Source: Thermodesulfobacteriota bacterium (lineage in GTDB: Bacteria > Desulfobacterota_D > UBA1144 > Nemesobacterales > UBA2774). From it: a stretch of DNA of 64,000 bases. The translations under genes and the position numbers were made by a program. The notes under the pieces were generated by a model. The model did not search any database. It was not told the origin of the DNA and saw only the letters and a program-made list of their open reading frames with translations. How positions within the stretch are numbered: the first letter of the stretch is position 1; every line of letters begins with the position of its first letter. Below, one piece after another: positions 1-51,137 of the stretch. The DNA is taken from assembly GCA_965216785.1 (NCBI GenBank), contig OZ244197.1, forward strand, positions 2,080,001 through 2,144,000. The letters are read 5' to 3'.

Positions 1-206
1 AAGACTGCGGATCAAGAGTTGGGGGTACAAATCCGAGCGAGCGAGGATTTGGTCCAATTTGAGAGAAGTATCGGAATTACAAGACTTGGAAATTTGACGG
101 GTATTAAAGAGAGCGAGGACTTGGTCCATGCTCTTAGAATTGAAAAATTTGCAATACTTGGCAAGTGCGGATGGATCGAAGTTTAACACTCCCTCCGGGC
201 GCGCCA
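1..206 (+). other. Putative interrupted or degenerate tRNA-Arg (5' end outside window): anticodon and T-arm 5' half at 1-32, 3' T-stem and acceptor strand with CCA at 191-206
   Basis: GA-CT-GCG-GA-TC loop then GGGGG-TACAAAT at 21-32; CCCTCCGGGCGCGCCA at 191-206 is a typical tRNA-Arg 3' end and CCCTC pairs with GGGGG. Anticodon stem pairs poorly in the visible part. Confidence 0.5.
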
Positions 207-257
207 GGAAATCACATTTTAAACATATCTTGCGACATAAGGGAGTAGTCAAGACCG

Positions 258-890
258 ATGACAGGTAAAGAAAGCTTAGAGCAGAAGCTGGACAAAGAGG
301 TAGAGGATTACTTAGAAGTGGTAGAGGGGACGGAGGAGATCACATCGCTTATGGGGGACGGTATATCCCGTGAGGACTATGTGAGGCTACTTAAGACCTG
401 CTACGTTATTGAGCACGTAAGCCGGAGTGCGGTGCTGCTCGCAAGTGACGTGACCGAGAATACCAACCCTTATCTAAGCAAGAGGTTCAAGTTCTGCGCT
501 AAAGGTGAGGAGGGGCACGCAGAGATGGCTCTTAGGGACTTAAAGGATATGGGCGTAAAGGGAGTTAAGCTTTCGGATTTGCCGCATGTTGAGGACTATG
601 GCTCTATGCTTATGGACACCGCCGAGAATTTCCCCCTCGGGATACTCGGCCATTCCTACCTTTTCGAGAACGCTTCGGGGATTATGTTCCCGAAACACAG
701 CGGCCACGACTATCCATCTGAATTTATCCGGGTCCACGCCAAGGAAGACCCCGGGCACTCGATTGCCATAAAGAGGACCGTGAGGCACCTTGAGAGTGAT
801 CTCTCGGAAGATGATATAGAGAACACCGCCAGGTTCGCGCGCGAGAGCGGGGAGTTTCTTCTGAGGATCTTCCAGGACATTCAGGGCTGA
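258..890 (+). CDS. Heme-oxygenase-like iron-containing redox enzyme (TenA/PqqC/CADD-like fold)
   Basis: Helical protein with EEGHxxxAxxDL and HxxEDxGH metal-ligand motifs; AGGGAG RBS. Confidence 0.65.
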   Translation: MTGKESLEQKLDKEVEDYLEVVEGTEEITSLMGDGISREDYVRLLKTCYVIEHVSRSAVLLASDVTENTNPYLSKRFKFCAKGEEGHAEMALRDLKDMGVKGVKLSDLPHVEDYGSMLMDTAENFPLGILGHSYLFENASGIMFPKHSGHDYPSEFIRVHAKEDPGHSIAIKRTVRHLESDLSEDDIENTARFARESGEFLLRIFQDIQG

Positions 891-1132: not shown

Positions 1133-1226
1133 TGGCGGAGAGGGTGGGATTTGAACCCACGAAAGGGTATAAGCCCTTTACTCGCTTAGCAGGCGAGCGC
1201 CTTCGACCGTACTCGGCCACCTCTCC
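1133..1226 (-). tRNA. tRNA-Ser(GCT)
   Basis: Reverse complement GGAGAGGTGGCCGAG...CTCGC-CT-GCT-AA-GCGAG, long variable arm, GTGGGTTCAAATCCCAC, ends CTCTCCGCCA. Confidence 0.97.
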
Positions 1227-49532: not shown

Positions 49533-51137
49533 ATGGCTAATTCGACTGAGCCTTCGGGAAGAGTTGCTTTGGGCGCGGTAGAGATCGAGAAGAAATCAAA
49601 AAAAGTTACGGGCCGCTGGGTTCTTACCGCAACCATACTGGGGGCGAGCATGGCCTATATCGACGGCACCGCTATAAACGTCGCTCTCCCGGCCCTGCAG
49701 GAGCATTTAGGCGCTTCACTGGTGGACGTTCAGTGGGTAATCGAGGCTTACTCGCTGTTTCTTGCCTCGCTCATACTCGTGGGAGGGGCGCTCGGGGACC
49801 GCTACGGCAGAAAGCTCATATACGGGATCGGCATTGTGCTGTTCGCCTGCTCTTCCATACTGTGCGGCATAGCGGAGGACGTGGGTCAGCTGATACTGTT
49901 CCGGGCCGTACAGGGCGTGGGCGGAGCGCTTCTGATTCCTGGGAGCCTGGCGATTATCACGGTGTATTTCGATGAGTCGGAGCGGGGAAGGGCTATAGGC
50001 ACGTGGTCTGCTTTCTCCGCGATTACCACGGCGCTCGGACCGGTGCTCGGCGGATGGCTGATCGAGAACGTTTCCTGGAGATGGATATTCTTCATTAACA
50101 TCCCGATTGCCGTCATAGTGGTGACGATACTTTTCCTCAGAGTGCCCGAGAGCAGAGGGGAGACGGCCAACTGCAAGATAGATTACTTTGGCGCGGTGCT
50201 CGCGACGCTCGGGCTCGGCGGGCTGGTATACGGTTTTATAGAGTCCTCTAACCTTGGGTTCGGTAGCCCCTTTGTCTACGGCTCGATAGCACTGGGCGCG
50301 GCCGCTCTGGTTGCGTTCATAGTTGTCGAAGGTATTGTGGACGCGCCGATGATGCCGCTTAAGATTTACAGATCTAATACGTTCAGCGGCGCTAACTTAG
50401 TTACGCTTCTTGTATATTTTGCACTCGGAGGCGGGTTCTTTTTTATGCCCTTTGCCCTAATACAGGTTTTCGGTTACACAGCTACCCAAGCTGGCGCCGC
50501 GTTTTTGCCGATTATTGCCGCTCTGTTTTTTCTCTCTCGCTGGTCAGGGAACCTTACCGACCGTTACGGACCGAGAATTCCTATTATTGTGGGCTCTGTC
50601 ATAGGCGCCGCGGGCTATGTGCTGACAATACTCTACGGCAGGGAAGGGAACTATTTTCTGACATTTTTCCCCGGGATACTGGTGGTCGGTATCGGCCTGG
50701 GTGTGAGTGTTACCCCGCTTACTACGGCTGTAATGAACGCAGTTGGAGTGAGCCTCTCGGGAACTGCTTCCGGGGTGAACAATACTGTATCCAGAGTCGC
50801 GAGCCTGCTGGCGATCGCGGTGCTGGGTATCGTAATACTCCATACTTTCAACGCCCATCTGGACGCTTCGATGGACGCAGGCTCGGTGCCCGAAGCGGCG
50901 CGGAGCGCAATTGACAGCGAGCGCATAAATATGGCCGCCGCCCAGGTGCCTGTGATAGTGGGTGAGGAAATGAAGACGGCTCTTGAAGAAATGATAAAGC
51001 AGTCCTACATCAAAGGATTTCACATGGTGCTTTACGTAGCGGCTGCTCTATCGCTGCTGGGCGCTCTGCTGGCGTGGCTTACGATCGGGGGCAGGGAGCC
51101 CGACGCTCTGATTGAAGCTGAAAAGTGCGAGACGTAA
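49533..51137 (+). CDS. MFS drug:H+ antiporter (DHA2, 14 TM)
   Basis: IDGTAINVALP, GALGDRYGRK, WRWIFFINIP. Confidence 0.93.
   Translation: MANSTEPSGRVALGAVEIEKKSKKVTGRWVLTATILGASMAYIDGTAINVALPALQEHLGASLVDVQWVIEAYSLFLASLILVGGALGDRYGRKLIYGIGIVLFACSSILCGIAEDVGQLILFRAVQGVGGALLIPGSLAIITVYFDESERGRAIGTWSAFSAITTALGPVLGGWLIENVSWRWIFFINIPIAVIVVTILFLRVPESRGETANCKIDYFGAVLATLGLGGLVYGFIESSNLGFGSPFVYGSIALGAAALVAFIVVEGIVDAPMMPLKIYRSNTFSGANLVTLLVYFALGGGFFFMPFALIQVFGYTATQAGAAFLPIIAALFFLSRWSGNLTDRYGPRIPIIVGSVIGAAGYVLTILYGREGNYFLTFFPGILVVGIGLGVSVTPLTTAVMNAVGVSLSGTASGVNNTVSRVASLLAIAVLGIVILHTFNAHLDASMDAGSVPEAARSAIDSERINMAAAQVPVIVGEEMKTALEEMIKQSYIKGFHMVLYVAAALSLLGALLAWLTIGGREPDALIEAEKCET

Follow-up and report, generated by a model that had tools for sequence, protein, structure and literature searches.

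GTAG REPs, REPINs and BIMEs, with their RAYT proteins, are non-autonomous hairpin DNA that is thought to move through single-stranded DNA (ssDNA) and to form mosaic arrays. Two further arrangements are found at tRNA genes. Integrative elements that target tRNAs leave att scars, in which the 3' end of an intact tRNA recurs downstream as an exact copy. In the tyrT-type repeats of E. coli, the tandem units downstream of a tRNA each close with a repeat of its 3' end; we know of no hairpin-headed nested element in these repeats. CGTC REPs, in the available portion of their description, lack a dedicated transposase, and some REP families are inserted in other small palindromes (Di Nocera, De Gregorio and Rocco, 2013, PMC3733652). 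Ssn proteins, again in the available portion of the report, cut ssDNA just 5' of their hairpin and on one strand only; cutting and an effect on transformation were demonstrated, and mobility was raised as a hypothesis only (Chenal et al., 2025, PMC11893778).

The window, a stretch of 64,000 nucleotides from a Thermodesulfobacteriota bacterium (genome G000; contig OZ244197.1), opens just downstream of an intact tRNA-Arg(ACG) gene (G000:C1:2079882-2079958, window -118 to -42), the single Arg(ACG) call of a whole-genome ARAGORN run. Within the window, ARAGORN calls one tRNA, the tRNA-Ser(GCT) gene of Table 1. A first-pass annotation made from the window's letters alone had read positions 1-206 as a tRNA-Arg gene split in its T-loop by an insert. 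tRNA-Arg-like sequence does lie at both ends of the insert, but the gene itself is complete and stands upstream, and it is the edge of the window that makes a real scar look like a split tRNA. The locus is almost certainly composed of the intact tRNA-Arg(ACG) and, after it, a duplicated 3' half that carries two stacked, gene-less elements (E1 and E2) in its T-loop. The insertion would be harmless, because the intact tRNA gene remains upstream of the spare half.

Table 1. Features at the start of the window, in window coordinates.
Feature	Position	Strand	Description
Spacer end	1..2	+	Last 2 bases of the 44-nt spacer G000:C1:2079959-2080002, 3' of the intact tRNA-Arg(ACG)
Partial tRNA copy	3..26	+	tRNA-Arg nt 31-55 less one G; runs from the anticodon loop to the first base of the T-loop
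E2 hairpin head	27..52	+	AC, 6-bp stem, 10-nt GA-rich loop, 6-bp stem, GG
E2 tail	53..110	+	E2 total 84 nt
E1 head, 3' remnant	111..124	+	Second copy of the 18-nt direct repeat
E1 tail	125..187	+	Homologous to the single element at the T-loop position of the tRNA-Arg sequence of G001 (alignment to L032)
tRNA 3' copy	188..206	+	tRNA-Arg nt 59-77 including CCA, exact
Degenerate spacer copy	207..255	+	Older; same inverted anticodon-arm motif at its end
Heme-oxygenase-like ORF, 210 aa	258..890	+	PF14518 match weak, under its cut-off
tRNA-Ser(GCT)	1133..1226	-	Convergent

The size of the insert was well judged by the annotation at about 158 nt: the 161 nt at 27-187 stand in for tRNA nt 56-58 at the T-loop position, which gives a net insert of 158 nt. 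The direct repeat that it had seen at 39-56 and 111-128 is likewise real (18 nt, 17/18 identical). The 5' tRNA piece is 85% identical to tRNA nt 31-63, and positions 188-209 are a 22-nt exact copy of the end of the intact gene and its first flanking bases, placed 248 nt downstream. A longer, weaker match joins 188-255 to -60..5 (80% over 69 nt, E 1e-6). The 44-nt spacer ends in an inverted copy of anticodon-arm sequence, and tRNA nt 31-77 together with this spacer would form a 91-bp duplication unit, a size that is read from the alignments. Three oddities that had been listed lose their weight. The GCG anticodon is a strain-level substitution (A>G) in the fragment, since the sister species G002 and a contig of run X5 have ACG while contigs of runs X1 and X7 have the G. 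The T-loop TACAAAT is a mis-join, because positions 27-32 belong to the head of an element, and the poor pairing of the anticodon stem follows from partial copying, its 5' strand being represented by nt 31-32 alone.

The layout suggests an order of events. E1 would have entered the T-loop of the 91-bp duplicate and replaced 3 nt; with its lost 8-nt arm restored, E1 would measure 89 nt, a net gain of 86. E2 would then have entered the head of E1 and replaced its 5' arm, adding 84 nt for a net gain of about 76. In G002 and in the X5 contig, the E1 head remnant is 4 nt longer. The E2 head is the best profile match in G000 (E 3.6e-05), where the profile search finds 3 copies of the head. The net values of 86 and 76 fit the two size groups of the element family described below.

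An assembly artefact was considered for this arrangement and rejected. A contig of run X1, which is possibly the source sample, spans the locus with 0 differences; a second contig, from run X5 of a different study, also spans the locus, with 45 differences and 6 gaps in ~1470 nt; and the layout is common to G002. Among the 61 genomes searched, G002 is the one with a match to the whole trailer (88%), and its intact tRNA is the same at 76 of 77 nt. Between G000 and G002, the elements are identical at 144 of 161 positions (89%), as against 1452 of 2521 fourfold sites (58%). Special conservation of the locus was nevertheless rejected, as 13 neighboring intergenic regions give 75-94% over aligned positions and 89% falls within this ordinary range; function is therefore not claimed.

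Relatives have elements at three places in tRNA-Arg(ACG) sequence, in some cases as tandem arrays: one position follows nt 12-13, another is a sense-strand insertion at the T-loop, and the third is an antisense insertion at the 3' T-stem. The locus at the start of the window is one example of this pattern. In G001 (L032/L312, G001:C327:1-156), the 5' part of a tRNA-Arg(ACG) with its promoter runs into one E1-like element at the T-loop, and the contig ends there. No intact tRNA-Arg(ACG) was found in this genome, which is 80% complete. The G001 fragment has the same 1-nt deletion as the G000 fragment, and the arrangement would fit a spare copy or a collapsed assembly. In genus g5 (L008-L011, L317), tRNA-Arg(ACG) is followed by 181-bp units, four of them in L011, and each unit consists of an incomplete copy of the tRNA whose T arm holds an element in antisense orientation. 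The orientation of the gene also varies when window 1-890 with its upstream sequence is compared with L004-L031, L072, L312 and L315. tRNA-Arg(ACG) is directed at the heme-oxygenase-like gene in G000, G002 and G004 and lies the opposite way in 21 other genomes (24 scorable, 8 unscorable); a local inversion has apparently taken place more than once.

The two elements belong to a family of gene-less repeats of ~87 nt, each made up of a 26-nt hairpin head and a variable tail of ~60 nt. A degenerate head pattern matches 27 of 61 genomes, namely G000 and 26 of the 32 other members of its family, with up to 94 copies per family genome. The same pattern is found in 0 of 28 genomes from seven other families of the order, and the reversed pattern, used as a control, gave 0 matches. 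Among the collection matches listed, many named head carriers are titled Candidatus Dadabacteria; matches titled Spirochaetia, Ectothiorhodospiraceae and Deltaproteobacteria also carry the head, and as these are placed by title, the spread is claimed for the family only. A search of the literature, largely without subscription papers, found no description of such repeats.

The head is a multi-copy extragenic hairpin whose stem covaries. In a set of 280 elements, which had been pre-filtered for pairing, the five strongest covarying pairs are the stem pairs. In 399 heads with unfiltered stems, 5.43 of 6 positions form Watson-Crick pairs, compared with 3.99 +/- 0.04 when partners are shuffled, an excess that is not to be read as a probability because related patterns were used to collect the loci and the copies are related to one another. 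Perfect stems occur in 198 of the 399 heads and comprise 21 stem types. A position profile of the 280 elements shows conservation at the 5' end only and no terminal inverted repeats. None of the top 45 covarying pairs joins the upstream flank to the tail in the manner of a guide, A-specific mutation of the kind found in DGRs was not seen, and the tails show no clear A-tract period of 10.5 nt.

According to a rough classifier, 435 unique copies are distributed over 176 GTC-type REPs, 127 CCCTC/CCCCT hairpins, 43 other element heads, 20 sites in three smaller repeats, 16 sites at tRNA sequence, and 53 'other' sites, most of which resemble variants of the named classes. The mini-element suggested by the first-pass annotation is thus real as a family, but it is not specific to tRNAs: most copies sit in other hairpin repeats and 16 of 435 lie beside tRNA sequence, where they occur in both orientations. 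The targets have no core sequence in common. In eight target classes of 6 to 43 filled sites each, the modal difference between filled and empty spacing is ~89, 85, 87-88, 87, 88-89, 86, 85-88 and 88 nt, with several empty lengths in classes B and G; class A has an additional shorter group at 69-76 nt. Over all kinds of target (hairpins, other copies, tRNA arms and a prophage gene), an insertion adds ~81-89 nt. Units that duplicate a tRNA 3' end measure 87-89 nt in 9 cases and 76 nt in 1, and seven further repeat spacings are 13 (three times), 82, 95, 124 and 127 nt. The prophage gene offers empty (L118, L334) and filled (L054, L057, L222, L319, L336) alleles of one site. The filled alleles are longer by 84, 84, 82, 165 and 246 nt and hold one to three element units; 4 of the 5 are in frame, and target codons are duplicated. 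The 5' junction is fixed at AC, preceded by an A in 252 of 306 elements. The 3' junction varies, with target sequence lost or duplicated by variable lengths, and at most sites 2-4 target nt are lost or changed.

Like the CGTC REPs, in the portion of their description at hand (PMC3733652), the elements are short, extragenic, multi-copy hairpins with no linked transposase, and the head has a loop similar to those of the CGTC-type repeats in these same genomes. Set against that portion, they differ in a head without the GTC tag, a tail of ~60 nt, and a near-fixed addition of ~87 nt, and in that they target CGTC repeats themselves along with other hairpins, tRNA arms and their own kind. A second likeness is to Ssn proteins and their SRM/NTS sequences as set out in the available portion of PMC11893778, for head-bearing genomes contain small GIY-YIG genes flanked by repeats, and both are hairpin systems that act on one strand. 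SRM-like repeats are among the main targets of the element, while the head itself fits the SRM pattern, as given in that portion, in 0 of 306 cases. With GTAG REPs and REPINs or BIMEs, as far as the available part of the REP paper (PMC3733652) goes, it shares the character of non-autonomous hairpin DNA in mosaic arrays; the GTAG tag is absent from the profile of 280 elements and a Y1 domain is present in 3 of 27 family genomes.

At the tRNA, the direct repeat of the tRNA 3' end past an intact gene is that of an att scar, and on this point the suggestion of a decayed att scar was half right: the tRNA piece is a scar-like duplicate, but the insert belongs to the mini-element family. Unlike an att scar, the unit is ~91 bp, there is no remnant of an integrase or island, and the interior is a repeat family found genome-wide. 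The E. coli tyrT-type repeats also have units that end in a tRNA 3'-end copy. MITEs differ by their terminal inverted repeats and fixed target duplication, both of which are absent here. IS110/IS1111-type elements that target hairpins differ as well, since their DEDD recombinase does not track the head (6 of 27 family genomes, none in G000). A group I or II intron of a tRNA is unlike the insert in that removal of the insert restores no tRNA and no catalytic core was matched in Rfam. An archaeal-type protein-spliced intron, with its bulge-helix-bulge boundaries, is likewise set aside, since a full tRNA cannot be rebuilt. The family is a variant of the REP-like mobile repeats, unusual in its fixed size and in the breadth of its hairpin targets. 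The element works like a non-autonomous hairpin of the REP/REPIN type that leaves att-like scars at tRNA ends.

The heads are unevenly distributed between strands. The C-rich strand carries them in 133 of 180 loci, and in 121 of 168 when third-codon skew is used; neighbor genes occur in both orientations, and gene orientation does not explain the bias. The head in the window is one of the minority on the opposite strand. As local skews call the replichore of G000 correctly in just 63-65%, the true bias is probably stronger. Empty target repeats are biased in the same way (36/46, 34/46, 16/25 and 38/48), so the bias of the heads may be inherited from their targets. These data point to replication-linked ssDNA, with the contributions of element and target not separated.

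The tails indicate how the copies multiplied. The nearest tail is found within the same target class in 160 of 183 comparisons, and because tails are mostly specific to a target class, copy number overstates the number of insertion events; much of it is likely to be amplification of composite units of repeat plus element. Left and right flanks are of unlike class in 19 of 202 elements, and in 16 of 18 of these the tail goes with the right flank. Such chimeric flanks were rejected as proof of site-specific exchange, as any crossover between heads yields the same pattern. The idea that a tail is an error-prone copy of its own flank was also rejected as a general rule (149 of 306 above control, p 0.58); it holds just for sites of the duplication type.

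Several proteins were considered as movers. Of the 28 family genomes scored, 20 of the 22 with heads have small stand-alone GIY-YIG genes, as against 0 of the 6 without heads (two short frames were set aside as pieces of UvrC). This co-occurrence has a Fisher p of 7e-5 among genomes that are kin and may reflect the target repeats alone. Many of these genes have inverted CGTC-type repeats on either side, which in turn contain elements; by this arrangement of gene and repeat, the proteins may be regarded as Ssn-like. Two genomes, G000 and G018, have the head with no intact small GIY-YIG gene, although G000 retains a C-terminal remnant of 24 codons beside a REP-like repeat (G000:C1:2399491-2399575). 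At least 7 of 18 head-free genomes of other families also have small GIY-YIG genes. At 23 inspected GIY-YIG loci, heads are found solely inside SRM-like repeats, and insertion points lie inside these repeats, not upstream where Ssn cuts. The published Ssn motif (SRM) matches 0 of 306 heads and does not occur in window -120..260. Two side observations concern these genes: in L267 (G027:C213), the tRNA-Pro gene and an interrupted 5' copy of it are separated by a small GIY-YIG gene of a different type, and another follows a tmRNA (L273). GIY-YIG units at tRNA-Pro and tmRNA genes may explain tRNA-fragment repeats.

Other enzymes fare less well. Among the ORFs near elements, 100 were scanned with Pfam (of 150 listed from 229 candidates) and contained one GIY-YIG protein and no transposase or integrase. 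Clustering of 433 nearby ORFs yielded no dedicated partner protein; in that set, the presence of GIY-YIG and DUF559 genes is biased, as their loci were fetched on purpose. No autonomous parent was found in 15 stretches with paired or repeated heads. RAYT/Y1 was rejected as a mover, the Y1 domain being missing from all 7 genomes of the head-rich genus g5 and from G000 in a survey that includes many incomplete genomes. IS110 was rejected on the counts given above, and DUF559, found in 13 of 27 family genomes, because it tracks the heads poorly. In L334 and L336, DUF559 nuclease genes seem to overlap hairpin repeats of the CCCTC type, and the two could possibly form a second pairing of nuclease and repeat, by analogy with Ssn and SRM.

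The favored reading, for which the case stands about evenly, is that the ~87-base element moves as ssDNA with the aid of a nuclease that cuts hairpins and is encoded elsewhere, the likeliest candidate being a small GIY-YIG protein of the Ssn type. The nuclease would nick a hairpin exposed during replication, and the nick would be joined precisely to the 5' end of the head. Host repair would resolve the far end, with 2-4 nt lost or 13-40 nt of target duplicated, and composite units of repeat plus element would then be amplified together. This reading is weakened because a nuclease alone explains neither the joining nor the fixed size. A bolder proposal, tentative and with the weight of probability against it, is that the family represents a new minimal class of mobile DNA that parasitizes Ssn-type nucleases, with a ruler-like step that adds ~87 (or 76) bases whatever the target. 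If true, it would be the first sign of Ssn proteins driving transposition, and it would give a way into the spread of CGTC-type repeats and the formation of their mosaic arrays; the mover of these repeats, a question raised in the available part of PMC3733652, would become testable should the Ssn link hold. For mobile DNA in general, the family is a clean test case: its 5' junction is fixed and its size nearly so, it has numerous natural targets, empty alleles can be matched with filled ones, and the candidate enzyme family is small and has a published ssDNA assay.

The fixed size could also be produced by a circle. A DNA minicircle of ~87 bp (or ~76 bp) might be excised and integrated in trans by a tyrosine or IS110/IS1111-type recombinase, and at tRNA ends the circle would bring the 3' end with it as a kind of minimal attP, although this is unlikely. 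A circle would keep the net size constant whether target is lost or duplicated, the two size classes are about one helical turn apart, and, like integrative elements, the units at tRNA 3' ends restore the gene. Tyrosine recombinases are encoded in 46 of 46 genomes, hence their presence is uninformative, and G000 has 15 matches. What speaks against a circle is that the targets share no core and mostly lose or change a few nucleotides, that IS110 does not follow head counts, and that the tails lack a clear 10.5-nt periodicity; no circle junction was seen in the contigs, which could hardly show one.

A doubtful alternative does away with a dedicated enzyme altogether, so that forks stalled at hairpins, template switching, and recombination among heads would copy blocks of head plus tail and build the tandem units. 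The lack of a linked enzyme among the scanned and clustered ORFs agrees with it, as do the mixed-class flanks with tails that track the right flank. In G000 and genus g5, short inverted copies of tRNA arms border the duplicated units, and in 3 of the 24 genomes that could be scored, the tRNA is inverted relative to the heme-oxygenase-like gene. On the other hand, slippage could hardly give a 5' junction precise to the nucleotide and a near-fixed size in eight unrelated targets and a coding gene, and the tails are not copies of their own flanks.

An explanation confined to this locus takes the 248-bp stretch as an eroded integrative element, with attL and attR preserved and the interior deleted. 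The exact 22-nt copy of the tRNA 3' end is what such an element would leave, and G000 has other tRNA-end repeats at island distances in addition to its tyrosine-recombinase matches. It is improbable all the same, for the interior consists of two copies of a dispersed repeat family that lies mostly far from tRNAs, and no integrase ORF is found between the repeats (nor any ORF of at least 60 aa inside 1-206). That the insert is an intron-like RNA, spliced from the T-loop to yield a working tRNA, draws some support from G001, where the 5' part and promoter run into a homologous element and no intact copy was found, but is refuted for practical purposes. Three alternative in-silico joins give no tRNA in G000 at three ARAGORN thresholds, no acceptor 5' strand or D arm is present in the 44 nt preceding position 3, and the gene is intact upstream. 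Rfam, intron models included, has zero matches in 1-206 at E values up to 5. Elements are found at tRNAs in either orientation, and the G001 contig ends at the element and has the same deletion, as a spare copy or collapsed assembly would. For tRNA biology, the result is a negative one, in that no T-loop intron is present and the edge of a window can make a tRNA trailer mimic a split gene.

A few other features were observed. In the window, 928-1101 is an AT-rich repeat of ~170 bp with 20 matches in G000 at E 1e-6, 17 of which are on the + strand and most of which lie at 2.08-2.25 Mb. HicA and HicB-like domains occur together in one ORF, which follows a ribbon-helix-helix ORF, at 1498-1920 and 1961-2182 on the - strand. 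In intron mode, ARAGORN calls a tRNA-Lys with a 98-nt intron at 49726-49919, a call that is probably false, as the stretch resembles coding sequence and a paralogue matches it at 66% over 235 nt. Elsewhere in G000, a tRNA-Leu(TAA) gene (G000:C1:1384385-1384612, - strand) has after it a tandem unit of 141 bp in which the 3' end of the gene recurs and one REP is nested in another.
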